From an uncultured virus (IMG/VR IMGVR_UViG_2061766007_000697) (Duplodnaviria > Heunggongvirae > Uroviricota > Caudoviricetes): a DNA stretch of 42,723 nucleotides. Below are positions 6,655 to 22,187 of the stretch, piece by piece. Position 1 is the first letter of the stretch; the number at the start of each line of letters is the position of its first letter. The position numbers and the translations under genes are program-made. The DNA is taken from IMG/VR virus record IMGVR_UViG_2061766007_000697. One strand, given 5' to 3'. The notes under the pieces were generated by a model, which was given only the letters and a program-made list of their open reading frames with translations, was not told where the DNA came from and did no database searches.

Positions 6655-7380
6655 ATGCCTGATACCACCGGTACAGTTAATAATTTGATTAGAGCTCAGC
6701 AGAAGTTTATTGCAAATACTCTTGCTGGCCCCAAGGATGTTAAGATCTTCCGTATGGATGACTACCCGACCATACGGAAGGTTCTGTTTGATAATGTGAA
6801 AAGCGCTATCTCTCAGCGTTTCCCTCTTTACAATGATAGATATACGCTGACTATAGAAGACGTTGATTATGATGACCCAGAAGAGGTAGGCATCGATAAA
6901 CAGAAACAAGCTATTCTAGATGGTACATCTGTGACAAGACGTCTTCGCGGCAGCTGGGTCCTTCGTGATGCAAAGACAGATAAGGAAGTTAGTCGTACAA
7001 AACGTATGACCCTGATGTCTGTGCCCTATATCACTGATAGAGGAACATTCATTCGTAATGGCCATGAATATGCTTTCTCTAACATTATGCGAATGGAACC
7101 AGGAGTATATACAAAGCAGCGCGATGATGAGGTGTCTGCGCAGTTTAACATCAAGAAGGGCACAGGTGCTGGTTTTAATATGTATTTATCACCGAGTACC
7201 GGTATCTTCAAGATCAAGCGCAATACAACTAGTTGCCCTGCTTATACTGTTCTTCGTGATATAGGCGTCACCGATGACCAGATGAAAGAGGCCTGGGGAC
7301 AGGAACTCTTCGATAAGAACAAAGCAGCGGGCTCTGACGAGAAAGCTTCAATAGCAGCTAATAAAATATATAACATGTGA
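6655..7380 (+). CDS. rpoB: RNA polymerase beta subunit, stand-alone N-terminal fragment (~241 aa)
   Basis: VPYITDRGTFIRNGHEYAFSNIMRMEPGVY matches the bacterial RpoB motif [30 protein letters not shown]; upstream segment matches the RpoB N-terminal region (DYDDPE...GTSVTRRLRG). Confidence 0.85.
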   Translation: MPDTTGTVNNLIRAQQKFIANTLAGPKDVKIFRMDDYPTIRKVLFDNVKSAISQRFPLYNDRYTLTIEDVDYDDPEEVGIDKQKQAILDGTSVTRRLRGSWVLRDAKTDKEVSRTKRMTLMSVPYITDRGTFIRNGHEYAFSNIMRMEPGVYTKQRDDEVSAQFNIKKGTGAGFNMYLSPSTGIFKIKRNTTSCPAYTVLRDIGVTDDQMKEAWGQELFDKNKAAGSDEKASIAANKIYNM

Positions 7381-7388
7381 GTTTCGCT

Positions 7389-8253
7389 ATGAATATAGTT
7401 ACTGTATACAAGCAGATGGAGAAGAAGGCCGCNNNNNNNNNNNNNNNNNNNNNNNNNNNNNNNNNNNNNNNNNNNNNNNNNNNNNNNNNNCAGGGAACTT
7501 TTGGTCAGATTGGATCTAATCTGAAGAATTGGTTTGGTCAGAAGTCCTGGGACTTTAGGCACGGTTTAGATACATTGTTTGGTACCAAATCAACATATGG
7601 CGAGAAGCGCCCACAGGATAAATCCTTTAATGGTAGTTTTTGGGGTGCGATTAATCNNNNNNNNNNNNNNNNNNNNNNNNNNNNNNNNNNNNNNNNNNNN
7701 NNNNNNNNTGCAGGCCGAGCAGACCGGCGCTAAGATTAATGTCAATAAGAACAGTGACTACAATCGCGCTATTTATCTGCCAGAGAATCAGGTCTTCCAG
7801 CGTATGGCTAATGAAGAAGCCCTTGGTCAGCAGTATGATCAGCTTAGGGCCCGTGGCATGTCCAATGAGCAGATTGCTAATTATGTCATGCAAGAGAAGT
7901 ATCTTCCGCTTGTTAGAGACGTTACTGGCAAACAGAACATCAACAGCTCTATGAAGCTTACAGATGAAAACTGGAATACGATCAAGAGCAAGATGTTGGC
8001 TAGACAGATGAACGGTGTTAAGCAGAATCTTGAGAAGGTTGATCCAAATACAGGCTTCTCTAACAAAGAATATAACAGCGAGCTCTATAATAAAGATTAC
8101 CAGAACGCATTGAAGAGTAATATGGATGCCAAGGTTGATGCCCTGCGCAAAGGTCAGGATCCATCTAAGACAAAAGTTACATACTCTGATGTGATCAATA
8201 ATAACAAAGCCATGCAGGACGCTGTGAATAAGGCGACCAAGAATAATTGGTAA
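7389..8253 (+). CDS. putative internal virion protein
   Basis: MNIVTVYKQMEKKA start; ORFs 7377-7733 and 7579-8253 join across gaps. Confidence 0.5.
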
Positions 8254-8264
8254 TAGGAGCAATC

Positions 8265-8781
8265 ATGAATCCTTCTAAGATTTTTACTGATATCGTTAAT
8301 GACTCGGCTAATGTCGAGTTTGTGAACCAGCTGAATCTTATTCGTAAGACAGCGGCCTCTAATGCTATTATAAATACTGTTTTGAATAATGGTGTGTATA
8401 CAGCAGCTAAGCCGACTGCATTACAATCTATGACCAGCTGGATCAAGGCTAATCCGTGGAAATCCGGTATGATCGGAGGCGCTGCTCTTGGTGCTGGTGG
8501 TGTCGCTGCTAATACTGTNNNNNNNNNNNNCTGGTGGTATAGCTGATGATCCGGTTGTTAAAGCACTCAGTAATCCCACTAAAATGAACACAGCACAGAA
8601 GATCAATACTGGTATTGGTACTGCGGCCGGACTTGCTGGTGGTGCTGGCTTATACGCATTACTTGGTAATATCCCAGGTATTAAACGCAAACCACTTCTC
8701 AAGGCTATTCTTGCTACACTTGGCGGTGGTGTTATTGGTTATGGTGCTTGGAGAGCGGCTGACAACTATCAGAAGGCCTGA
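8265..8781 (+). CDS. Gly-zipper-like putative internal virion protein
   Basis: AGGAG RBS, ATG 8265; RKTAAS motif; three Gly-rich hydrophobic helices; joins across a short gap. Confidence 0.6.
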
Positions 8782-8783
8782 AT

Positions 8784-9556
8784 ATGCCCGATTCATACGA
8801 AGAGTGGAAAAATTACGATCCAGACGATCCGCAGTATCTGAGCACTGCTGAACGCTGGCAGCAAAAATCGGATGCCGTTATGGGGCATGCGAAGAATTGG
8901 CTTAACAGCGTCGGTCAGGATGTTGGAACTGGTGCTGCCGGGTTTGCTGCTGGTACTGGGCTTAGACTGCTTGGTACAAGTGCCCCGAAAGCACTGGTTC
9001 GTAGCGGTATCCCGGCCAAGATTATAAAGAGACTCCCTTGGGCTCCTGCTCGTGCAATTGGTACAGGTCTTCAGTGGCTTGGCGGTACCCAGATGACATG
9101 GGCACCTATTGTTGCAACTAGACAAACGATTGATGATATCACACAACCTGTAGAGCCACCACAAACTGATGCGCAGCATCTGAAGAAATGGTTTAAGAAT
9201 ACAGGCACTGGTGTTGGTATTGGCCTTGGAGTAGCTGGATTAGGTGGTGCGATTTCTTTGATACCTGGTGGACAAATTATTGGCCTGCCGTNNNNNNNNN
9301 NNNNNNNNNNNNGGAATCTACTGCAGAGTTGTGGATAGATAAGCTTTTCAGAAATGGTAAACCACGTCCGACACCTCCACCAGAAATGCCAAAGCCTAAA
9401 AATAACTATAAAGCCAATCTGTACGGTGCAGCTATTCCAGGAATGGCCGGTCTAGTTGGTGGCTACGCTCNNNNNNNNNNNNNNNNNNNNNNNNNNNNNN
9501 NNNNNNNNNNNNNNNNNNNNNNNNNGAATAAAGCAAACCAATCAAATATAGGATAA
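8784..9556 (+). CDS. Gly-rich putative internal virion protein
   Basis: ORFs 8784-9338 and 9329-9556 probably one gene across gaps; several GxGxGxG hydrophobic segments. Confidence 0.5.
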
Positions 9557-9562
9557 TATAGT

Positions 9563-10315
9563 ATGAATTTCAACACTGTTTATAATAGAAGCTTTCAGAA
9601 GCTTGCTGGGCGTTATAATACGCAAAGCACAAGTGAAGCGTACATGAATAAATCTGCCATGGATAAGAAAGCTAATGTTTTGCTTGGTGTATTAGCTCTT
9701 GCCCTTGGCGCTGGTATAAACGCAGGCATCGGTGCAGGAATAGGCGCCGGCATTAATAAGCTGCGAGATAAAGATGTCCGTTCTGGTGCTATTCGAGGTG
9801 CTGGTATCGGTGGTGGTCTTACAATCGGTAGTGCTTTGGGCGGTGAACTTGGACAGGCACTTACCGGTACACTGGAGGGCGGTGCTTTTGGTAATCTTGT
9901 TGGTCTGCCTATTGGTGGTTATCTTGGAAATCGTGCCGCAACCGATTATATGAAGCGGAATCCAGGAACAACAAAGAGCGCTTCTTATAGACAGTTTAAG
10001 GAAGCAGCTACTGCGACTCCTGCAGCATTTGCAGCGCCGCAAGCAGTCCCGGATGCACTGACACCTTTTAAATTCAAACCAGCAGAAGATCCTAAAAAGG
10101 CAGTTGGCAATGCTCAGATGGATCTGGCTGCCGCTGCAGAGGGGGTTGGCGCTAATACACCACAGCAGCCCATCAGTGACCAAGATATAGCTGCAAAAGC
10201 GATTGAGACTGTTGATAAAGGTAATCAGGCTTTGCTGAAATATCTCACACAGTCCAAGAAAAATGATCAGGCTGCGCAGCAGGCATACCAGCAACCTGCG
10301 AATCCTGTGGTATAA
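9563..10315 (+). CDS. Gly-zipper-like putative internal virion protein (250 aa)
   Basis: intact ORF; QKLAG, NKSAM, DKKAN, TKSAS motifs; GAGINAGIGAGIGAG repeat. Confidence 0.7.
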   Translation: MNFNTVYNRSFQKLAGRYNTQSTSEAYMNKSAMDKKANVLLGVLALALGAGINAGIGAGIGAGINKLRDKDVRSGAIRGAGIGGGLTIGSALGGELGQALTGTLEGGAFGNLVGLPIGGYLGNRAATDYMKRNPGTTKSASYRQFKEAATATPAAFAAPQAVPDALTPFKFKPAEDPKKAVGNAQMDLAAAAEGVGANTPQQPISDQDIAAKAIETVDKGNQALLKYLTQSKKNDQAAQQAYQQPANPVV

Positions 10316-10377
10316 GCCTGTTCAATTTACATTTTTACCTTGATACTATAACAAACCATACATGAAAGGTATTCATT

Positions 10378-10622
10378 ATGATCGATTATACTGATCTTAT
10401 TATCAAAGTTGCTTCTATCCTGGAAGACCAGGAAGAAGAGATGCTGCAGAAGGAAGCTGGCGTCGGTGCTCTTCGTGGCGCACACAAGCTCATGCTCAAG
10501 AATATTGCCAGAGCCTCCTCTGCTACTCCGTCCGCTGTTAACAAGCTTCGTGCTCAGGGTCTTGTCGCCAACGTTAAAGGTATGCCGAATGGTACCAAGC
10601 TTCTGCTGGCTCCTGCGGCTGG
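10378..10622 (+). CDS. putative internal virion protein, 5' fragment (rest in gap)
   Basis: AAAGG RBS; IKVAS and QKEAG motifs. Confidence 0.55.
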
Positions 10623-11154
10623 NNNNNNNNNNNNNNNNNNNNNNNNNNNNNNNNNNNNNNNNNNNNNNNNNNNNNNNNNNNNNNNNNNNNNNNNNNNNNN
10701 NNNNNNNNNNNNNNNNNNNNNNNNNNNNNNNNNNNNNNNNNNNNNNNNNNNNNNNNNNNNNNNNNNNNNNNNNNNNNNNNNNNNNNNNNNNNNNNNNNNN
10801 NNNNNNNNNNNNNNNNNNNNNNNNNNNNNNNNNNNNNNNNNNNNNNNNNNNNNNNNNNNNNNNNNNNNNNNNNNNNNNNNNNNNNNNNNNNNNNNNNNNN
10901 NNNNNNNNNNNNNNNNNNNNNNNNNNNNNNNNNNNNNNNNNNNNNNNNNNNNNNNNNNNNNNNNNNNNNNNNNNNNNNNNNNNNNNNNNNNNNNNNNNNN
11001 NNNNNNNNNNNNNNNNNNNNNNNNNNNNNNNNNNNNNNNNNNNNNNNNNNNNNNNNNNNNNNNNNNNNNNNNNNNNNNNNNNNNNNNNNNNNNNNNNNNN
11101 NNNNNNNNNNNNNNNNNNNNNNNNNNNNNNNNNNNNNNNNNNNNNNNNNNNNNG

Positions 11155-11540
11155 CGCAAAGAAGCAGGATCTCTACAAGATATGCTTACTATGCATAATC
11201 CGCTATCGCATGTAGATTATCTTAAAGACCAAGCCTCTCGAAATGGTTGGAGTAAAGTATTATTCGGACGCGGTGATGAGGGCTATGTGGATTATCTTAT
11301 GCGGACTGGAAAAGTAGATGCTAATAATGATTCTACTGCTATGAAGAGATATAATGTTTTTTATAATGGCTGGGNNNNNNNNNNNNNNNNNNNNNGGATT
11401 ATGGTGATGGTCTCCTTGCAAAGACAAAAGCATTCTTTGGTTTAAAGCCAGATCAGATAACGCGCACAGGAACCAGACCAAATTATCTAATTTTCAAAAA
11501 GCCAGGTATATGGGATAACCTGAAGAATATGTTTAGTTGA
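11155..11540 (+). CDS. hypothetical protein, 3' fragment
   Basis: RKEAGSLQ... continues across a short gap as DYGDGLLAK...WDNLKNMFS-TGA; may or may not be the same gene as 10378. Confidence 0.5.
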
Positions 11541-11557
11541 TATTTGTTGACTTCTCT

Positions 11558-11588
11558 GCCCTCCCCTCAACGAGGTGGAGGGCTTTTT
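11558..11588 (+). terminator. rho-independent terminator
   Basis: GCCCTCC-CCTC-AAC-GAGG-T-GGAGGGC hairpin followed by TTTTT. Confidence 0.75.
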
Positions 11589-11640
11589 CGTCTACATTAA
11601 TTATAAGACGCGCAAGCTTTTTGTAATAGGAGACATATGT

Positions 11641-14600
11641 ATGAATGACCTCAATGTGAACCAGCAGCCTCAGACGACAGAGTCTGTTGANNNNNNNNNN
11701 NNNNNNNNNNNNNNNNNNNNNNNNNNNNNNNNNNNNNNNNNNNNNNNNNNNNNNNNNNNNNNNNNNNNNNNNNNTGCTTGCTACTTCAAAGAAATTACTT
11801 GGTATCTCTAAGCGCGAACAGGAACCAGATCCTAAGGACTCTCTTGCTTTTCAGCGTTTCTATGGCCCTGAGATGCTGTTCCAGGAGCGCATTCTTCGTG
11901 ATGGTGGTAAGCTTGCTCGTAACATCCTGTGGAAGGCGACTAATAGAGGCAATCTAGACTTCATGCCAGTTGGAGCCCTTGATAAGCATATCTCTTCTGT
12001 TTTCTATGATAGCAAGCTTGCACAGATGATGGATGGTTCTTCGCCACTTGAGACCATTGACTCTGCCTATAAGACTACACGAATTGGTGAAGGCGGTGTT
12101 GCATCACAGGATAGCGCACCAGATGAGATGCGTACTGTGCAGCCAAGCTATTTTGGTTTTATTGATCCTGTGAGATGCTTTGCCAAAGGCACAGAGATCA
12201 AGACAGAGTCTGGTTGGAAAGCTATTGAGGATCTCACAACAGAAGATAAGANNNNNNNNNNNNNNNNNNNNNNNNNNNNNNNNNNNNNNNNNNNNNNNNN
12301 NNNNNNNNNNNNNNNNNNNNTATGAGGATGATAATGTTGCTTTCTGTGTGACACCGCATCACAGGCTCTATATCAAAAAAGATGATGGTTGGGATATTGC
12401 TTTTGCTGAAGATGTCTATGGAACAGAGGTTATTATCAACCTTTCTGAGACAGATGAACAACTTTATAAGTTAGAAAAAAGATATTGGTATGAGCAAAAG
12501 AATGAAGACTTTGTTTATTGNNNNNNNNNNNNNNNNNNNNNNNNNNNNNNNNNNNNNNNNNNNNNNNNNNNNNNNNNNNNNNNNNNNNNNNNNNNNNNNN
12601 NNNNNNNNNNNNNNNNNNNNNNNNNNNNNNNNNNNNNNNNNNNNNNNNNNNNNNNNNNNNNNNNNNNNNNNNNNNNNNNNNNNNNNNNNNNNNNNNNNNN
12701 NNNNNNNNNNNNNNNNNNNNNNNNNNNNNNNNNNNNNNNNNNNNNNNNNNNCAGAAAGCACAGGTAACCAAAGACGGCTCTATCCCTGGTTCTACACAGA
12801 GCGGTCTTGCAGCTGTTTATCCAATCCGCACAACTGTTGCGAAATTCCCGCCTAAGCGTAACTGGTTCTATAAAATCGTCCTTAGATCTGGTCGCTCCTT
12901 GATTACATCTGCTGATCANNNNNNNNNNTCCCGCCTAAGCGTAACTGGTTCTATAAAATCGTCCTTAGATCCGGCCGCTCTCTGATCACATCTGCTGATC
13001 ACCGCTGGTCTGTTCTTCGCAATAACCGTTATAGACTTATTGATGCCAAGGATCTGAAGCCTGGTGATATGGCGCTGCGCTCTACTTTCAAGGATGTCAT
13101 TTCCAGACGCACCTTTGTCAATGGCATGCTGGTTAATAAGGATCTTGCCACCGTCTTCGGTTATATTGCCCGCTCCCTGTCGCAGCCTGACAGCTATAAG
13201 ATGCGCATTTCCATTCCAGAAGATCGCTATAATTTCGTCATGCAGCAGCTTGCACGCATCGGATTCACAGAAGGCTTCAATACCTATTATATGAATGTCG
13301 GCACTTTCTGCATCGGCATCCGTGATGAGAAGTTTAAGCTCTTCCTGAAAGAGTCTTTTGGCGCCACCGATAGAGAACGCAAGATCCCTGATTTCATTAT
13401 GTCTGCCAACGCTGCTATCGTTAGTGCCTTCCTTGATGGTTATACAAACGATCCTACTAAGGTTGGCCGTGACTCTGCAGACGACATCTGGATTCTTGAT
13501 ATACCGAACACTGCTGTGCGCGATTCGCTCGCTTTCCTTTTTGCCAGAATCGAAACAGACACCCTTTATAGAGATACCACAGTAGATGGTGAGATGGAAA
13601 TCGCAATGAAGCTGGTTCCTATGGATCCGCGCTACGGTGATATGATTCTGGATGAGATCAAGGTTATCAAGAAAGGCATCTCTGCGCCTATTATGGTGGA
13701 TATCGATGTCAACGATAATCTTTATGCTGTTGCCAATGGTATCGTGACGCACAACTCCAAGTACCCGCTGCAGGCTATCAGTGTTGAGAATCGTGAGGCG
13801 CCTCTTGTCCGTGGTCTTGATGAAGCCAGCGGCAAGGATATGCAGACGCTTATTGGCAAATATCTTGGTGCGCGGTTTGCTCCTCGTGACGGTGTTGTTA
13901 CCGCTGTCAGGAAGGATCGCATCGATGTCCGTTATGATGACGGCAGTAAAGGGAGCATTGATATGTATGTCAACTTCCCAATGAATGCCAAGGGCTATAT
14001 CAACAACACACCCAGAGTCAAAGCCGGACAAGCCTTTAAGAAGGGTGATTGTCTTGCTAGCAGCAATTATACAGACGATAAAGGTGTGGCCGCGCTTGGT
14101 ACGAATCTGCGGTCTGCTTGGATGTCTTGGAAAGGCGGTACATACGAAGATGCCATTGTTATCAGTGAGAGTGCTGCTAAGAAGCTGACCAGCACCACCA
14201 TGTATAAGACAGCCGTGGATCTGGATAAGACTGTAAAGCTTGGTAAGCAGAACTATATGACATGGAAGCCTGGTGAGTTCAGCAAAGAGCAGATGGAGAA
14301 TCTGGATGCTAACGGTATTGTGAAGCCTGGTACTATTCTGCATAAAGAAGATCCTATGATCCTGGCAGTGAGGATGACAGAGCCTTCGCCTGGTACACTG
14401 GGTAAGCGCATCTTGACCGATATGAGCGAGAGATGGGAACATGATCATCCTGGCGTGGTTACTGATGTTGTCAAGACCAGGAAGGGCATCAAAGTTTATG
14501 CAACTGTTACGGCACCTGCAGAGGTTGGTGACAAGCTGTCAGGGGGCTATGGTAACAAGGGTGAGATTTCTCAGATTCTTCCTGATGATGAGATGCCTAC

Positions 14601-17600
14601 AACGAAAAAAGGTGAGCCAATTGATATATTACTGAGCCCGCTTGGACTTATTTCGAGGACGAATAATTCGCAAATTTATGAGGGATTACTTGGTAAAGTT
14701 GCAGCCAAAACAGGCAAGACTATTACAGTCCCGCAGTTCTTCGATAGGCCTATTCCTGATTTCGTTGCGGAACAGCTCAAACAGAACCACATAGAACCTG
14801 ATGAGGATCTTGTTGATCCCTCGACAGGCAGGGTTATGCCTAATATAACCACAGGTATATCTTATATATACAAGCTGAAACACCTGGCTGAATCTAAGAT
14901 GTCGGCTCGCGGTACGTCGACATATGATGCTGAGGGTCTTCCTGGCGGTAAGGGCATGGACGGCTGCTTCCCAGGTCCGCAACTTGTTATGACCAGCGGA
15001 AGCTATAAGGCCATCAGCGCACTCGCATTCTCTAAGGACGTGAATCAGGTTGGTACTTGCACAGAGAAGGGCGAGTTCTGCTACTATCCTTCTATTGACT
15101 CGTTCAGAAAGCTTGTGCCGCCCAGCGATCTTATCAGCATTGTGCCTAAGTGGTCATTTGGTCCTAAAGGCTTCCTGGCACATACCATTATTCCAATGAC
15201 GCCTACTAAGAACCATGCCATCTATATGTATAATGGTATGATTCAGAAGCATGCTGGGGATATCAAGAGTGGAGATAAACTGGCGGGNNNNNNNNNNNNN
15301 NNNNNNNNTTACAGGTGCTCGCCAACTTGATATCTTCTACTGGCATGGTGGATGACGATAGGCTCACAGTTACGTATGATGACGATCATGCCGCGCTGGC
15401 TATATTCAAGTGTGGTATCCTTAAAGGGCTGCATGCTCACATCAATGAATATAGACACACTATTACTGTTCCTCACTATTCGCTCTACGAAGCTGCACTG
15501 CAGGAGCAGGATTTTGGTGAGCTATATAAGTGCTTACAGCTGTTGGATGGACATGGTGCTGATGATGATGCAGAAACTGTTGCCAAGTACATTCCTTGGT
15601 CTATTATCCCAGAGAGCAGAAGTGAGCTGAAAGCTGCTGTTAAGGCGCTGCAGGAGAAGGAACCTGTTAAAGAGATCGATACCAAGACGCACCTTGGGTT
15701 GATGCCTATTGTTGTGGACAAGATTGAACCTTATAAGACAGATAAAGAACTCGTGCGCGTATACGACCTTACTATCGATACTACGCATAGATATATTCTG
15801 TTTGGCGGCTATGTGGTCAGTAACTCTAAACGCTTTGGCACACTTGAACAGTCTGCCATGGCCGGACACAACGCCTTCGATATTATTAAGGACAGTAAGT
15901 ATATCCGTGGCCAGAGTAATTCGGATTTCTGGCGTAATCTTAGAACTGGTGACATTCCCACTATTCCTGGTGAGCCGCTTGTTCATAAGAAGTTCTTTGC
16001 GCATCTGACTGGTGCTGGTGTTAATGTTAAGAAGACTCCTCAGGGTGTGTCTATCTTTGCTCTGACCAATAAGGATGTGAACGAGCTGGCCGGTCCTCGT
16101 GAGGTCAAGAGCCGCGATACCTATGAGGCCAGAACTTTCAGACCGATTGATGATGGTTTGTTTGGGCAGAACGTATTTGGCATTAACGGCGATAAGTGGG
16201 GCTACATACAGTTGGACGAACCTGTGCCTAACCCTGTTATGGAAGAGCCGCTTGCTCGCCTGCTGAATATTCCTGAGAAGAAGTTCGCTGATGTTGCTTC
16301 TGGTAAGGAAGAGATCAATGGTATCAAGGGTGGCGCCTCTATGAAGGCTGCACTTGAGAAGATTGATCTTGGTGCCGAGAGTGCGAAGGCGTTGAATAAC
16401 TACAAGACCATGACTCCTAGCGGTAAGGATAAGGCGCTGAAGCGGTATGTGGCTATTGAACGCATGAGACGCGCTGGTGTTAAGCCTTCTGATTATATGC
16501 TGGACAAGATTCCTGTCATTCCTCCTATATATAGACCCATTACAAGCTATAACGGTCTTACAATGGTCGCTGATAGTAATTACCTTTATGCGCAGCTGCT
16601 GGATGCGAGAGATGACGCCAGAGAGTCCAAGAATCTGCCTCAGGAGTTCCAGGATCAGGCCAGAGAAAATATTTATACAAAGTGGAAAGAGTTGACCGGC
16701 CTTTATGCGCCCCAGGATGTTAAGCTTCAGAGCAAGCATGTTCAGGGGTTGCTCAAGTGGGCTCTTGGTGACAGTCCAAAATTCTCAGCGCTGCAGCGCA
16801 AGGTACTGAGTGCCACTGTTGATACTGTTGGCCGTGGTGTTGTGGTTCCCGATCCGAGGCTGCGAGTCAATGAGCTTGGTATACCAGAAGTAATGGCTTT
16901 CAATATCATGGGCCCGATTGTTGAGCGAAAGCTTGTCAAACAGGGCTACACACCTTTGCAGGCTATGGAGAAGGTGAAGAAGCAGGATATTCAGGCGAGA
17001 GATGCACTGAATGAAGTAATGCGCGACCATCCTGTGCTTATGAATCGTGCGCCTACCCTGCATAAGCTTGGTGTTATGGCATATAAGCCCAGACTGGTAG
17101 CAGGTCATGCGATTCATGTAAATCCTTCTACAGTAGTGCCATTCAATATGGACTTTGATGGCAATTGTTGTGATTATGATAGCAAGATTTTCTTGAAAAT
17201 ATCGAAATCTCAATACAATAAAGTTGATGTGAGTTATGTTAATTGTGTATCCGGAAACAACTATGAAAAGGAGACACAATCCATGAAACTTCCATTCGAC
17301 ACAAAAATCACTGCTCACGACATCGATGACAACGACTACGTTTGCATGAAGATTGGGGAATTTCCACGCATCGGTACACCTATCAAAGACAAGAATGGGG
17401 CAGACTGCTATGCCGTTCCTTCTGGCATTCAGGTTCTTTCCTGTGACCCAAAATCTGGTAAGGAATGCTGGCAGACTGTGAAGATGCTGACTGTCGAAAA
17501 TGACTGTGACACTGTAAAAGTTAAACTCGGCTCTAGAGAGCTTATTGTCTCTACCAACGAGTCCCTCGCTGTTTTCGACCACGAGACTGGTAATCTTAAA

Positions 17601-18899
17601 AAGGTTGCTCCAGATAAGGCAGGCATCTCTATGGTTCCTGTCTTTAAGAGGCAGCCTGCGCCGTTTGGTACTTATGGCGATCGTGATCTTGGGTGGATGA
17701 TGGGTGCATTTATCTCTGATGGCTGGAGAGCTGGTAATACTATCGGCTACGCCAAGCTTGAAGCCTCTAAGCGCGATGAGTTTGTTAGAATCATCAGAGC
17801 GCACCACGAGAACTTCACTGTCAAGATCTATGAAGAGAACGCCAATGTGCAGTCTGATTCCTACAAGCTTGGCAACTCTGTTAAGATTCATCTTAATAGC
17901 AGCACCCTTGTCGCCTGGTTCGATCAGTGGAGTTTTGTCAGCGATGACATCAAGGATAATCTTGATGGTAAGCGTACTGCCCTGTATAAGCAGGTTCCGC
18001 AGTATCTTATCGACTACGGCAGCGAAGACTTCCTCTGGGGACTCTTTAGCGGCTTGATTGATGGAGATGGTAGTATTGCTAAGAATATGGCTACTGGTAG
18101 GCCTCGTTGGTCTGTNNNNNNNNNNNNNNNNNNNNNNNNNNNNNNNNNNNNNNNNNNNNNNNNNNNNNNNNNNNNNNNNNNNNNNNNNNNNNNNNNNNNN
18201 NNNNNNNCCTCCACCATTGACATGTATCAGAATTTAGATAAGCTGACGTGCATCGGGGAACGGGAACAAGAGCTTATTACAGAGTGGACGTCTTGCGCGC
18301 CGTCTAGGGACACGTATGATGTTGTGCCGATAAGCCAGAATGAATATACAGCGCTTAAGTTGTTTGTGACACAGGATAGCGACAGCAGCCTGTATGCAGC
18401 AATCATGAGGACTAAGGGCACTGGCTGCAGGGCTAATCGCACGCTTTTGATGCGTCATGTCGAAGAGATCAAGGAATACATACCTTCGCTCTATGATCGC
18501 ATTATGGCTACAAATACTATCTGGGAAACTGTATCCAGTGTTGAGCCTGCTGGTAAACGCCAGGTGTTCGACTTCGAGGTTGAAGGCACTAAGGTCTTTG
18601 CTATCAACAACGGTGTTGTGATTTGGGACACAGTGAATATTCATGCCCCGGTCTCTGATGACGCGCGTAAGGAAGCGTATGCCAAGATGATGCCTGAACG
18701 CAATCTGATTGGTATGCGCTCGCGTGAGATCCTCTATAAGCCTGAAAAGGAATACCAGCAGGGTCTGTATATCGCCACTCGCATGAAGTCTGGTCCAGAT
18801 GTACGCACACACTACTTTAACACGTTGGAAGAAGCAAAGCAAGCTTATCGTGACGGCATTATCGACGTCGACGACCCCATTGTAATCAAATCAAAATAA
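11641..18899 (+). CDS. rpoBC: RNA polymerase beta(C-part)-beta'(N-part) fusion precursor containing four inteins
   Basis: AGGAG RBS. Beta motifs: SKLAQMMD..PL, GTYEDAIVISE, GDKLSGGYGNKG, SPLGLISRTN, YKLKHLAESKMSAR, KRFGTLE. Then, with no stop, beta' motifs: TFRPIDDGLF, IPVIPPIYRP, VDTVGRGVV, NRAPTLHKLG, NMDFDG. Frame breaks occur only at N gaps; continuity across those gaps is inferred. Confidence 0.9.
12176..12520 (+). mobile_element. intein 1 (mini-intein) in beta region D; C-terminus in gap
   Basis: FIDPVR|CFAKGTEIKTESGWKAIEDL (block A), VTPHHRLY (block B), FVYC (block F start); site equivalent to RpoB CPIE|TPEG. Confidence 0.85.
12752..13755 (+). mobile_element. intein 2 with degenerate LAGLIDADG-type endonuclease domain; N-terminus in gap
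   Basis: LITSADHRW (block B), IPDFIM...AFLDGY, VDIDVNDNLYAVANGIVTHN|S; C-extein SKYPLQA equivalent to RpoB RALMG|xNMQRQA. Confidence 0.85.
14965..15824 (+). mobile_element. intein 3 in the beta C-terminal GG-QRFGEME motif
   Basis: GKGMDG|CFPGPQLVMT, TPTKNHAIY (block B), VYDLTIDTTHRYILFGGYVVSN|SKRFG. Confidence 0.85.
17166..18629 (+). mobile_element. intein 4 (atypical, Asp-terminated) with LAGLIDADG homing endonuclease, in the beta' catalytic loop
   Basis: NMDFDGN|CCDYDSKI; WMMGAFISDG and LFSGLIDGDGS endonuclease motifs; VFDFEVEGTKVFAINNGVVIWD|TVNIHAP, after which beta' homology resumes. Confidence 0.85.
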
Positions 18900-18920
18900 T
18901 TTATATACAGGAGCATTTCT

Positions 18921-19398
18921 ATGCACAACTTCGATAACGTCATGAAAGGTTTTAACAAGAGAGCCACAGCCGTGCTGANNNNNNNNNNNNNNNNNNNNNN
19001 NNNNNNNNNNNNNNNNNNNNNNNNNNNNNNNNNNNNNNNNNNNNNNNNNGGGAGGGGCGCCTGCTGGTGCTCCTCCGATGGGCCCCGCTGCCATGGGTGG
19101 TATGCCTCCTGCTGGTGGCGCACCAATGGATCCGGGTGCGATGGGCGGCGCTCCCGCAGCTCAGGGTTCAGGCGGGGGTGAAATTCCTCCTGAAATTCTT
19201 CAGGACCAGCTCTTTATGCAGTTCCTGCAGGCGATGGGTGTGATCTTTGACCAGCAGACGGGCACTTTCATGGATCCTAATGGACAACCCCTTAGCGTTG
19301 ATGAGGTTATGCAGATTTATGACATGTTTCAACAGCAAGTCGCGGCGCAACAGGGCGCTGCTCCTGAAGGAGGCACTGCGGGTGGCGAAGCCATGGGT
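18921..19398 (+). CDS. low-complexity Pro/Gly/Met/Ala-rich protein (3' end in gap)
   Basis: AGGAG RBS; MHNFDNVMKGFNKRAT joins the 19078 frame across a gap (MGGMPPAGGAPMDPG...). Confidence 0.6.
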
Positions 19399-19891
19399 NN
19401 NNNNNNNNNNNNNNNNNNNNNNNNNNNNNNNNNNNNNNNNNNNNNNNNNNNNNNNNNNNNNNNNNNNNNNNNNNNNNNNNNNNNNNNNNNNNNNNNNNNN
19501 NNNNNNNNNNNNNNNNNNNNNNNNNNNNNNNNNNNNNNNNNNNNNNNNNNNNNNNNNNNNNNNNNNNNNNNNNNNNNNNNNNNNNNNNNNNNNNNNNNNN
19601 NNNNNNNNNNNNNNNNNNNNNNNNNNNNNNNNNNNNNNNNNNNNNNNNNNNNNNNNNNNNNNNNNNNNNNNNNNNNNNNNNNNNNNNNNNNNNNNNNNNN
19701 NNNNNNNNNNNNNNNNNNNNNNNNNNNNNNNNNNNNNNNNNNNNNNNNNNNNNNNNNNNNNNNNNNNNNNNNNNNNNNNNNNNNNNNNNNNNNNNNNNNN
19801 NNNNNNNNNNNNNNNNNNNNNNNNNNNNNNNNNNNNNNNNNNNNNNNNNNNNNNNNNNNNNNNNNNGTTTTATTTGCAAGAAAGGCTAATC

Positions 19892-22187
19892 ATGCCTACT
19901 ACTCTGGGACGTGAGCTCGTTAGGGACAAGCTTCCCGATAAGTATAAGCCCTATGCGGATCAAGTTCTGACGAAGAAGGTCACCACAGCGTTGATGACCG
20001 AGATCGCCAAAGAAGACCCTGATGGATATATTGATGTCCTTCAGGGCCTGAACAATCTTGCTCAGACTGTTGTCTCCACCTATGGACGAGATGCTGCACT
20101 GCCTTTTCGTGATATGAAAATATCCAAAGGCATTCAGCAGCTTAAAGACAAGATGAAAGCTATTGTTGATAAGGTCCTGGATGACGACAGCCTGACACCG
20201 GCCCAGAAAGAAGAAAAGATCAAAGAGCTCGGCTACAAGTACACACAGAAAGTGGAAGACGCTGTATTCGACGATAATGATAAACGACACACAGCGCTTG
20301 CCTCGCAGATCAATTCAGGCTCACGTGGTAATAAGACGCAGCTTCGTCAGATGCTGTTTGGCAATATGCTGATGAAAGATGCGCTGAACCGTGACATGCC
20401 TTATCTTGGTTTGGATGCCTATGCCAATGGCGTGACACCGACTAATTACTGGGTATCAGCATCATCCGGTCGTAAAGGCTATTACGACGTTCAGATGGCA
20501 ACAGGTCAGTCTGGCTATCTAGGAAAACGAGTTACAGCTGCTACACATGATACTATCATAAGTGAGGATGATTGTGGGACTACTGATACTGGTGTTCCTT
20601 ATCCTGCTAATAGTGATAAAAACATAGGTGCTGTACTGCTGAAGCCGTTCCATAATCATCCAGCAGGCTCTATTGTGGATGCGAAGATGGTTGCAGAGGC
20701 AGACGATGACNNNNNNNNNNNNNNNNNNNNNNNNNNNNNNNNNNNNNCTTGTAAGAGCAAGAACGGTGTTTGCGCTAAATGCAACGGGCTAGGCGAGAAT
20801 GGCAAGTTTCCTGGAATCGGTGAGTATGTCTCACTGAATGCTGCTCGTTCGTTTGTTGAGCCTCTTACACAGGCGTCTATCGGTTGTCTGGCTGGTGATA
20901 CAATGGTGCGCATGTTTGATGGGCCGGCCAAGGCTATCAAGGNNNNNNNNNNNNNNNNNNNNNNNNNNNNNNNNNTAACACGCTTCTATAGCCACGGTAC
21001 AAAAGAGATGTATCGTTGGTCTTTCTCTAATGGTACTACACTGGATTGCACAGCCGACCATAAGATAATGTTTATAGAAGCCATGCTTGCTCTCTATTGC
21101 GGTGATGGCCAGCGTTATTACACCTATAGAGAAAGGCCAATCGGCGAGATCAATGCTATCGAGTATGGCGTGCCTGTGTTCGATGGCAATCATAAGGTTG
21201 CCGAGCATCTTATAGGTCCGACTAAGGAATATCTTGNNNNNNNNNNNNNNNNNNNNNNNNNNNNNGATAGATCATCCAAGCCATATGTTCCTTTTGAATA
21301 ATGGGCTTTGTGTGAGCAACTCCAAGCATTCTGGTGGTGTCGGTGGTAAGAAGGTTATAGATCCAGAGGGCGAAGATCAGCCAACTGGTTTCCGCAATAT
21401 AGAGCGTATGTTTACCACGCCATCTAACTTCCCTGGTGGAGCGGTGCTTACTCCTATTGATGGTACAGTGTCCTCTATCCAACCAGCAGCGCAGGGTGGT
21501 ACTTATGTTACAGTCGGCAATAAAACTCTCTATTGCAGTCCCTATAGAACAGTGACTGTGAAGAAGGGCGATAAGGTCTATGCCGGTGATATGCTGACAA
21601 ACGGCGTGCCTAACCCGATGGAGGTTGTGGCATTGAAGGGTCTTGGTGCAGGTCGCATCTATTTCATGAATAAGATGAATGACATCCTTAAGAAGAGCGG
21701 AGCAGGTACAGCCAGACGCAATCTTGAATCCTTCACCCGCGCCTTCCTTAATAAAGTAGAGATCACTAATCCGGATGGCTATGAAGATTATCTGCCAGGT
21801 GACATTGTCAATTACAGCAATATCATGGCGGATTATGAGCCACGTGAAGATTCACAGTCCCTTGCTCCCGATAAAGCCATTAACCAGTACCTTGAGAAGC
21901 CTGTCCTATATTATACAATAGGAACACGCATTACTCCAGAAGTCGCTTCTACACTAAAGAAATATAAATTCAATGATGTACTGGTAAACAAGAATGAGCC
22001 CTCGTTTGCTGCTCGCTTTATGCGCCCCGCCGAGGGCTTGCAGCACGATAAAAACTGGTTGCCTCGTCTGTCTGGTGAGCGCCTTAAAGAAGGGTTGTTT
22101 GATGCAGCTCGTCAGGGAATAACCGATTCTTATGATTCCCCGAGCTATGTTGATAAGATCATCATCAACCCAATAAAGCCTAATTGA
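19892..22187 (+). CDS. rpoC: RNA polymerase beta' subunit, C-terminal fragment with one intein
   Basis: MPTTLGR (TTVGR), INSGSRGN, bridge helix GRKGYYDVQMATGQSGYLGKR, EDDCGT, C...GVCAKCNG Zn site, trigger loop EPLTQASIG|SKHSGG, NWLPRLSGE; joins across the gap at 21237. Confidence 0.9.
20885..21320 (+). mobile_element. intein 5 (mini-intein) in the beta' trigger loop
   Basis: QASIG|CLAGDTMVRMFDG, LDCTADHKI (block B), IDHPSHMFLLNNGLCVSN|SKH. Confidence 0.85.

Follow-up and report, generated by a model that had tools for sequence, protein, structure and literature searches.

The 42,723-nucleotide stretch of DNA analysed here (the window, 42.7 kb; IMG/VR record IMGVR_UViG_2061766007_000697, from an uncultured virus of the Caudoviricetes) raises the question of what interrupts the genes of its RNA polymerase (RNAP) at five places in the active centre of the enzyme, and what the mature enzyme looks like once the interruptions are dealt with. 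A first-pass annotation, made from the letters alone, had proposed that the genes contain five inteins, each in an active-centre motif and four of them in one polypeptide chain. Judged from its sequence, the region very probably encodes the only multisubunit RNAP of a bovine-gut phage, colonised by five inteins, four in a chain that fuses the C-terminal part of beta to the N-terminal part of beta' (beta-C/beta'-N fusion) and one in the C-terminal part of beta' (beta'-C). The most unusual feature is an asparagine in place of the catalytic aspartate immediately before intein 4, which the first-pass annotation missed, recording only the Trp-Asp terminus of that intein.

RNAP inteins as such are already known, and the interest of this system lies in the presence of five in one phage polymerase and four in one chain. 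The use of at least 14 sites within one phage family, together with differences among strains more than 90% identical, provides a natural system for studying the spread and decay of inteins in an essential enzyme. The asparagine adds a second question. Hundreds of diverse phages encode Asn at the third catalytic Asp position, solely together with intein 4, and either a multisubunit RNAP works with a DxDGN metal site or splicing regenerates the aspartate; the first answer would be new to transcription enzymology and the second to intein chemistry. If regeneration is true, splicing alone would chemically complete a polymerase active site. Inteins that are free of catalytic His and end in Asp could also serve as protein-engineering tools.

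Five insertions in active-centre motifs

The window, a scaffold with gaps assembled from a metagenome, belongs to a large phage; it contains 55 runs of N and uses the standard genetic code. Relatives were collected from a scan of IMG/VR (151 found, 80 loci kept, many of them on contigs of 160-226 kb), from database proteins, and from public sequencing runs; in what follows, labels beginning with L denote relative loci, those beginning with P database proteins, and X1, X2 and X3 the public runs. The runs that contain window DNA are labelled bovine gut metagenomes, and X1 and X2 may be the runs from which the window comes. The genes on the + strand are identified by Pfam matches (Rpb2_6, E=5.9e-54; Rpb1_2, 2.5e-20; Rpb1_5, 5.2e-9; also Rpb1_1, Rpb1_4 and Rpb2_3) and by matches to solved bacterial beta and beta' chains in the PDB (E=1.2e-40 and 4.5e-38, respectively).

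To number the insertion sites listed in Table 1, in which a slash inside a motif marks the insertion point, intein-free relatives were aligned with phmmer to RpoB and RpoC of E. coli. For the trigger-loop site, alignments of the L005 allele to PDB chains and to E. coli place its G/S junction at R933/T934. Alleles free of inteins exist for all five sites, and distant loci are found without inteins 2, 3 and 5. In 54 of the 82 loci these genes contain no insertion longer than 80 residues, and the typical chain lengths in relatives are 1460-1500 residues for the fusion and 620-650 for beta'-C.

All five insertions lie where the first-pass annotation had put them, within 12176..21320, when the junction coordinates are recomputed, and its account of five inteins, each in an active-centre motif, with four in a single chain, is supported. 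Its division of the set into two mini-inteins (1 and 5), two inteins with a decayed endonuclease (2 and 3) and one intact intein (4) holds as well, as do the C-termini visible in the window, namely HN, SN, WD and SN for inteins 2, 3, 4 and 5.

The same annotation had pointed to the gap between inteins 1 and 2 as a place where its account might fail, in case closure of the gap turned the two segments into a single element. Public contigs close this gap. Comparison with them also shows that the runs of N are scaffold gaps of wrong length, across many of which the reading frames jump; since the lengths are wrong, frames across the window gaps cannot be trusted. An X2 contig has 83 nucleotides in place of the 69 N of the window at 12252-12320 and restores the frame there. 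A 17-kb contig of X3, an independent run (~93% identical), joins 12249 to 12752 through 745 nucleotides, against the 502 for which the scaffold leaves room; these 745 nucleotides, or 248 codons, fit 115 further residues of the ~140-residue intein 1, an extein segment of ~112 residues, and 20 residues of intein 2. The loose end after 12520, read in X2 in frame with the two preceding bases, is C-L-S-V-E-N-E-L-V-F, which is block F of the intein-1 family ("VYC..."), and the loose end before 12752, T-I-D-K-K-N-L-I-T-V, matches the start of intein 2 in P0152. The extein SPES...RLQMG is displayed by P0152 between sites 1 and 2. Because the length of the X3 bridge, the loose ends and the extein of P0152 all agree, inteins 1 and 2 are separate elements.

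Table 1. RNAP gene segments and inteins of the window, with insertion sites in E. coli numbering
Feature	Position	Strand	Site or boundary	Description and evidence
beta-N gene (N-terminal part of RNAP beta)	6655..7377	+		separate open reading frame, ~4.3 kb upstream of main chain
Chain start and first extein	11641..12175	+	ends in motif equivalent to E. coli beta ...CPIE562	Rpb2_3
Intein 1, visible part	12176..12520	+	PVR/C; beta E562/T563; CPIE/TPEG (Rif cluster II, region D)	mini-intein, ~140 residues; Cys1, block B TPHH; last ~21 residues in gap
Scaffold gap	12521..12751	+		end of intein 1, ~112-residue extein SPES...RLQMG in relatives, first 20 residues of intein 2; X3 contig, P0152
Intein 2, visible part	12752..13755	+	MG/.../S; beta G682/A683; RALMG/ANMQRQ	~326 residues in relatives; block B SADH, terminus THN/S; LAGLIDADG-like domain
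beta extein	13756..14964	+	from /SKYPLQ (E. coli A683...) to GKGMDG (E. coli ...G1266)	includes GNKG motif; Rpb2_6
Intein 3	14965..15824	+	G/C...N/S; beta G1266/G1267; FG/GQRFGEME	~289 residues; Cys1, block B TKNH, block F VYDL...THRY, terminus VSN/S; 21-N gap 15288-15308
End of beta fused directly to beta'-N	15825..17165	+	from SKRFGTLEQ (E. coli GQRFGEME) to DFDGN	one open frame; Rpb1_1, Rpb1_2
Intein 4	17166..18629	+	after third Mg-loop position; beta' D464/Q465; DFDGD loop	488 residues nominal; Hint and intact LAGLIDADG endonuclease; 92-N gap 18116-18207
Last extein of chain and stop codon	18630..18899	+	TVNIHAPVSDD...	E. coli alignment
beta'-C N-extein	19892..20884	+	ends ...EPLTQASIG	bridge helix and start of trigger loop; N gaps inside; Rpb1_5, Rpb1_4
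Intein 5	20885..21320	+	G/C...N/S; beta' R933/T934; trigger loop, two residues before H936	mini-intein, ~145-154 residues; Cys1, block B TADH, terminus VSN/S; two N gaps inside
beta'-C C-extein to stop codon	21321..22187	+	SKHSGG... (E. coli TFH936IGG...)	Pfam, PDB and E. coli alignments

Evidence that the insertions are inteins

Inteins 1, 2, 3 and 5 have the residues expected of ordinary class 1 inteins wherever these are visible, that is, Cys1, a block-B match of the TxxH type in all four, and a terminal Asn (HN or SN) followed by Ser at position +1. The Hint and LAGLIDADG hidden Markov model (HMM) searches that had been suggested as a check gave a divided answer: alleles of relatives pass the cut-offs, as detailed below, and several window copies do not. 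Support from HMMs is thin on the window copies and better with gap-free alleles.

The mini-intein at site 1 matches the 138-residue mini-intein of L012 by BLASTP over residues 1-25 (E=2e-8) and 58-87 (E=5e-7). In relatives it is followed by Ser at +1 and ends in GN or HQ; the terminus of the window copy lies in the gap. The family to which it belongs (L012 6893-7306 and nine others) occupies at least 7 different RNAP sites, ends mostly in W-C-G-N or W-S-G-N, and has an invariant Cys at block F (VYC) besides Cys1. A phmmer search with intein 1 of L002 against PDB sequences gave just a weak match to PI-PkoII (3.6e-4). An AlphaFold 2 (AF2) model of the 138-residue family member, with a predicted local distance difference test score (pLDDT) of 93.4, finds as its best PDB match 6zgq, the AceL NrdHF intein (E=2.5e-8, template modelling (TM) score 0.81), and the structural matches that follow are inteins and Hedgehog Hint domains. 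With the model of the intein-4 allele described below, the predicted folds settle the weakest cases.

Hint support for inteins 2 and 3 comes from HMMs, in the form of sub-threshold Intein_splicing matches and TIGR01443 at its cut-off. Intein 2 matches Intein_splicing at E=4.2e-7, below the cut-off, and scores 15.8 with TIGR01443, whose cut-off is 15.6; PRK14898 matches it through its intein part at 1.6e-8. Its first residue, which in the window lies in the gap, is Cys1 in relatives. Both catalytic acids of its LAGLIDADG-like domain, read from an alignment with the intact relatives L016, L018 and L080, are replaced, by Ser in motif 1 and Pro in motif 2, in the window and in six gap-free site-2 alleles. 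Every locus of the close clade (L003-L011) has an intein at site 2. Given this fixation and the loss of both acids, intein 2 is inherited vertically. Related to it are canonical Ser1...HN/T inteins with intact LAGLIDADG motifs that lie at another beta site, FNRK/S (L018 and L019, 7820-9022; L080, 7814-9019).

For intein 3, TIGR01443 passes the cut-off in the L002 allele. No LAGLIDADG match was found in the window or L002 copies, and the site-3 alleles of L004, L066 and L012 are ~100 residues longer (379-393 residues) and match LAGLIDADG_2 at E=1e-15 to 4e-20. The window copy aligns to the L004 allele over its last 87 residues alone (38% identity, E=2e-18). From these comparisons, intein 3 appears to have lost its endonuclease. 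It is also the fastest-evolving of the five, with 42% identity to L003 compared to 80-82% for the exteins.

The L002 allele of intein 5 passes both Pfam Hint (32.5, cut-off 29.7) and TIGR01445 (30.0, cut-off 24.5), and the two visible parts of the window copy are 84% and 71% identical to that allele. Neither intein 1 nor intein 5 contains an endonuclease. The ratio of nonsynonymous to synonymous substitution rates (dN/dS) is ~0.13 for inteins 2, 4 and 5 versus 0.06-0.07 for exteins, which are rough values because the synonymous rate dS is ~2 or saturated. Group I introns with in-frame reading frames were also considered as the identity of the insertions and rejected; the mini-elements without endonuclease, the Hint folds and the junction residues fit inteins.

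Intein 4 and the asparagine at the third metal-binding position

Intein 4 is atypical, with Asn at position -1, Cys1, block B S-T-N-E-S, a W-D terminus and Thr at +1; of the class 1 features, block B Thr-x-x-His and the C-terminal (His-)Asn are absent. Its two visible parts in the window are 59.6% and 47.1% identical to the allele of L008, and an AF2 model of the latter, built from a 37-sequence alignment, has a pLDDT of 90.3. Foldseek matches this model over its whole length to TliVMA (2.9e-20) and PI-PfuI (4.9e-20), and also to PI-TkoII and PI-SceI. The L008 allele passes LAGLIDADG_3 (25.9, cut-off 22.5), the intein at site 4 of L016 passes Intein_splicing, and the intein part of PRK14898 matches intein 4 as well as intein 2.

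A search with the L008 allele against 1.84 billion representative proteins found 486 relatives, 245 of them at E of 1e-10 or below and 139 at 1e-30 or below. A family set of 93 sequences was assembled from the 90 that span both junctions among the best 150 of the 486, plus the window, L007 and L008. All 93 have junctions of the form D-x-D-G-N/C...D/T or D/S, mostly with an aromatic residue before the terminal Asp. Asn(-1), Cys1, N131, W465, D481 and the terminal Asp are each conserved in 93 of 93, S133 in 92, K488 in 87 and E132 in 83; the +1 residue is Thr in 89 and Ser in the other 4. The three histidines known from studied inteins are all missing. The LAGLIDADG acids are kept in 90 (D187) and 91 (D301) members, and both are present in the window. 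A tblastn search of 50,697 phage records gave no match to intein 4 among cultured phages. The family profile, whose alignment carried C-extein columns, found RNAP beta' chains only among the PDB matches listed. About 20 database entries besides P0005, P0013, P0015 and P0017, all of 480-580 residues, have their first residue ~45-60 positions inside the intein-4 family sequence and continue into the C-extein; they may have arisen as fragments in gene calling, or a start site within the intein may account for them.

The window reads DFDGN/CC...VVIWD/TVNIH, and intein-free relatives read DFDGD/TVNIH. The third metal-binding position of the magnesium (Mg) loop is Asp in 78 of 81 loci, and the three loci with Asn are exactly those with the intein-4 type. 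A further 118 relatives divide into 14 with Asn, in every case next to a following Cys, 95 with Asp, and 9 in which the motif was not found. Asn without intein 4 was found in none of the 78 loci and none of the 95 proteins. Other types of intein at site 4 keep the Asp (D/S...HN/T in L016, D/S...QD/T in L010 and L011, D/Y...SN/T in L015). The intein-free P0151 is 100% identical to the window over the 90 residues that follow site 4 and has Asp at the site where the window has Asn. Two other Mg-loop sequences are of interest in their own right: the intein of L015 (11351-13033; DFDGD/YQNNS...SN/T) starts with Tyr and is therefore without a first-residue nucleophile, and L066 near 11320 reads DFDGD/KQIGN... 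at a contig end, possibly another insertion.

The Asp triad of the Mg loop is, to our knowledge, invariant in all multisubunit RNAPs. Its loss reportedly abolishes activity (work attributed to Zaychikov in 1996 and Sosunov in 2005); a literature search for mutational data on the triad gave nothing usable. In the gene, D-F-D-G-N precedes intein 4 and the intein itself ends in Asp; which residue the mature protein carries depends on the chemistry of splicing.

We lean towards the reading that intein 4 splices as a class 1 intein and that the mature RNAP would carry DxDGN, the Asn being tolerated as the cost of a selfish element that takes its -1 codon with it when it homes. Cys1 in 93 of 93 members and Thr or Ser at +1 in 93 of 93 point to selection on the canonical junctions N/C and D/T. 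A terminal Asp, which can cyclise in step 3 of class 1 splicing, is an accepted class 1 variant (Mills, Johnson & Perler 2014, PMC4031507). Since the Asn codon directly adjoins the insertion point, its perfect linkage with the intein is explained by co-conversion; between the window and the intein-free P0151, the flanking residues differ at the Asn/Asp position alone, and no compensating change other than those at -1 and +1 was found near the Mg loop in the 300 residues upstream and 85 residues downstream that were examined. What speaks against a DxDGN enzyme is the absence of Asn from intein-free alleles, which would be odd if the substitution were harmless, the invariance of the Asp triad in multisubunit RNAPs, the fact that these phages have no other RNAP, and the compatibility of Asp(-1) with Cys1 in the same protein. 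P0151 contains a Cys1 intein that follows Asp (STYD/C), which makes it unlikely that Asp(-1) is incompatible with Cys1 in general.

We consider it doubtful that the catalytic Asp is regenerated when intein 4 splices, either by deamidation of Asn(-1) in the course of splicing or afterwards, or through junctions offset such that the terminal Asp remains in the host protein, chemistry that is undescribed in either case. Without exception, the 93 members have both Asn(-1) and the terminal Asp, along with the conserved non-His set N131, E132, S133, W465, D481 and K488. Were the junctions one residue earlier (G/N-C...W/D-T), the product would be precisely DFDGD-T; the terminal Asp falls opposite the third Asp of Thermus beta' in a HMMER alignment, and Asn never occurs without the intein. 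However, the invariant Cys1 and the Thr or Ser at +1 fit the canonical junctions, and we know of no chemistry that ligates onto Asp or cleaves after Trp. The related proposal that intein 4 may represent an undescribed mechanistic class (Cys1, no catalytic His, S-x-N-E-S, Asn(-1), terminal Asp), in which splicing itself would complete the RNAP active site, is likewise tentative and in our opinion unlikely. The two outcomes differ in the junction peptide ...DFDG-X-TVNIHAPVSDDAR, where X would be Asn after class 1 splicing and Asp (+0.984 Da) after regeneration.

Distribution and mobility

Over the 82 loci, relatives use at least 14 intein sites in these RNAP genes. Sites beyond the five of the window include GDKM/AG (next to the GNKG motif), PSR/MN, the bridge helix, and several just upstream of site 1. 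Five insertions are also present in L003, L010 and L011. Of 53 database chains that span the fusion, every one of which was found by way of the intein at site 4, two carry five insertions in a single polypeptide and another five carry four.

The closest proteins, P0151-P0155, are 87-99% identical to the beta'-N extein of the window and differ in intein content. P0152-P0155 (1862-1863 residues) contain inteins 2 and 3 only. P0151, from a strain 92-99% identical to the window, is without intein 4 and has an extra LAGLIDADG-type intein, STYD/C...GN/SEGLPGG, at residues ~671-1044, twelve residues before site 3, where the window reads STYDAEG with no insertion. The absence of inteins 1 and 4 from strains more than 90% identical shows that traffic is recent. 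On a FastTree phylogeny of 132 alleles (76 with intein 4 and 56 without), the presence of intein 4 changes at least 16 times, a rough count as the two sets of alleles come from different collections.

The first-pass annotation had inferred heavy homing traffic between co-infecting phages. For part of the set this stands: proteins 91-99% identical to the window in the beta'-N extein are without intein 4, without intein 1, or have an additional intein, and intein 4 shows the changes counted on the tree and retains its LAGLIDADG acids. Intein 2, which is vertically inherited and has lost its acids, and inteins 1 and 5, which have no endonuclease, do not at present move by an endonuclease of their own. 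For the conditional control of RNAP activation that the annotation had also suggested as possible, no evidence was found in either direction.

Overall explanation and alternatives

The observations can be combined as follows. A phage with a genome of ~165-180 kb builds its polymerase from beta-N, the beta-C/beta'-N fusion and beta'-C. The fusion chain would be made as a precursor of ~2,490 residues, about half of it intein, and four splicing reactions in this chain plus one in beta'-C would have to take place before the active enzyme assembles. Inteins 1, 2, 3 and 5 would splice through their class 1 residues. Intein 2 is an old immobile resident, and the mini-inteins 1 and 5 can now move solely by recombination between co-infecting genomes. 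Intein 4 looks like an active homing element, for which the class 1 route (Cys1, Thr at +1, cyclisation of the terminal Asp) seems most likely, the Asn codon before it travelling along by co-conversion.

Several points weigh against this explanation. The case for splicing rests wholly on sequence. Intein_splicing remains below the cut-off for the window copies of inteins 2, 3 and 4, no Hint HMM matched the intein-1 family, and the hhalign comparison of the intein-1 and intein-5 family profiles was not significant (probability 0.4%). Intein 4 has neither the block-B His, the block-F His and the penultimate His nor a terminal Asn, and its class 1 splicing would yield a DFDGN product without a residue that is invariant in multisubunit RNAPs. 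Finally, the scaffold of the window represents a mixed population, with contig overlaps that are 93% identical and strains that vary in intein content; on that account, the presence of all five inteins on one molecule is not proven.

The last point leads to an alternative in which the inteins are genuine but were brought together from several strains, such that no genome has all five and the true number is maybe 2 to 4. Such a chimera we regard as quite improbable. It would be in keeping with the 55 runs of N, with the short X1 and X2 contigs, which break at gaps, and with the differences among near-identical strains in inteins 1 and 4 and at the extra site. The scaffold also contains an assembly fault: the 10-N run at 12919-12928 is flanked by a 73-nucleotide direct duplicate (93% identical), and the X1 and X2 contigs pass directly from 12845 to 12929, skipping the duplicate, which identifies window positions 12846-12928 as an unmerged contig overlap and not genuine sequence. 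On the other hand, the X1 and X2 contigs match all the pieces that they cover at 99% identity or higher and at a similar depth of 5-8. Five inteins lie within a single contig of the gap-free relative L003, and four within one of L007, whose record is a complete 176-kb genome with terminal repeats; database chains carry up to five insertions.

It is hardly credible that the insertions are permanent lineage-specific domains, like the sequence insertions of bacterial beta' and beta, or that the genes are dead: large insertions are indeed tolerated in bacterial trigger loops and several window copies fall below HMM cut-offs, but the insertions have Hint folds with conserved splice-junction residues and sit in buried catalytic motifs, the frames are open across diverged genomes under purifying selection, and near-identical intein-free alleles exist in phages with one RNAP per genome.

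Comparison with known systems

In its architecture of a Hint domain and a double-motif LAGLIDADG endonuclease, intein 4 (as modelled from the L008 allele) resembles the solved intein-endonucleases TliVMA (7qss), PI-PfuI (1dq3), PI-TkoII (2cw7) and PI-SceI (1vde), with Foldseek E values of 2.9e-20 to 4e-13 and TM scores of 0.5-0.68. It differs from them in sequence (10-13% identity), in having no catalytic His, S-x-N-E-S in block B, a terminal Asp and Asn(-1), and in its location in the RNAP Mg loop. Amitai et al. (2004) reportedly described class 1 inteins whose C-terminal residue is Asp or Gln. In the present collection, intein 1 of L003 ends in His-Gln, and intein 4 and the site-4 alleles of L010 and L011 end in Asp. 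Whereas such termini are sporadic in the described class 1 cases, the hundreds of members of the intein-4 family have an invariant Asp, linked to an Asn in the place of a catalytic residue of the host protein.

The intein-1 family model superposes on the AceL NrdHF intein (6zgq), a class 3 split intein, and the family has the Cys at block F (VYC) in common with class 3 inteins. Unlike 6zgq, the family keeps Cys1 and the block-B His and is not split. Other mini-inteins that can be named as comparators for intein 1 are gp41-1 and Mtu RecA.

Archaeal RpoA'' is another RNAP subunit that hosts inteins; PRK14898, of which the intein part matches inteins 2 and 4, is the NCBIfam model for archaeal A''. 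Goodwin et al. (2006, PMC1635734) describe inteins at six conserved sites, one per gene, in second-largest RNAP subunits from eukaryotes and from large DNA viruses. These inteins and those of the window have in common that they occupy the most conserved, cleft-facing motifs and use several non-allelic sites; the window differs in that it belongs to a bacteriophage, with five inteins per enzyme, at least 14 sites per family, and insertions in both beta and beta', including the Mg and trigger loops. Yutin et al. (2021, PMC7886860) describe crAss-like Zeta gut phages of 145-192 kb with interrupted core genes, including those of RNAP, with alternative genetic codes, and with up to 3 inteins per genome. 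Reading through TAG, as in the relatives L010 and L011, is a shared trait, whereas the RNAP of those phages is of a different type: the lineage of the window is related to Arash, its polymerase is a beta/beta' enzyme that Pfam recognises, and this polymerase by itself contains five inteins. Neither a phage beta/beta' RNAP with many inteins nor an intein linked to an Asn in the Mg loop was reported in the literature searched, which lay outside subscription journals.

The polymerase genes and their surroundings

The RNAP of the window is encoded by three genes, beta-N, the beta-C/beta'-N fusion (~11641 to 18896) and beta'-C (19892 to 22187). The start codon of the fusion chain was inferred by homology to L002 2405 and to P0152; a run of N (11691-11774) lies inside the first extein. 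No match at 1e-5 was found between PHROGs and 22 window reading frames outside the RNAP, and the phage origin consequently rests on the relatives of the RNAP. The nearest cultured relatives, with 34-35% identity, are Salmonella phage Arash, for which no literature was found, and three Vibrio phages. In Arash, a beta/beta'-N fusion of 1525 residues (gp206) and a separate beta'-C (gp216) adjoin the portal gene, and the same fusion is present in the loci of the relatives.

Each of four near-complete relatives, two of which carry intein 4, has a single beta' catalytic domain, and the multisubunit RNAP described here is therefore the only one of these phages.

The beta-N gene of the window is 80.6% identical to the beta-N reading frame of L003 over residues 26-267 (tblastn), and that reading frame contains the beta N-terminal motif region. 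The ~4.3 kb between beta-N and the main chain (7378-11640) consist of reading frames without a PHROG match. In L003 beta is split in the same way, but the intervening reading frames are different and shorter; beta is undivided in Arash and in distant relatives such as L027. Between the beta'-N and beta'-C genes lies a low-complexity reading frame rich in Gly, Ala, Pro and Met (window 18921-19890, with N gaps inside; L002 10148-11191), which is kept in L003 with 80% identity over the alignable part. In the RNAP matches of L010 and L011 there are 27 and 72 in-frame TAG codons, respectively, and no TAA or TGA; these two relatives probably read TAG as a sense codon.

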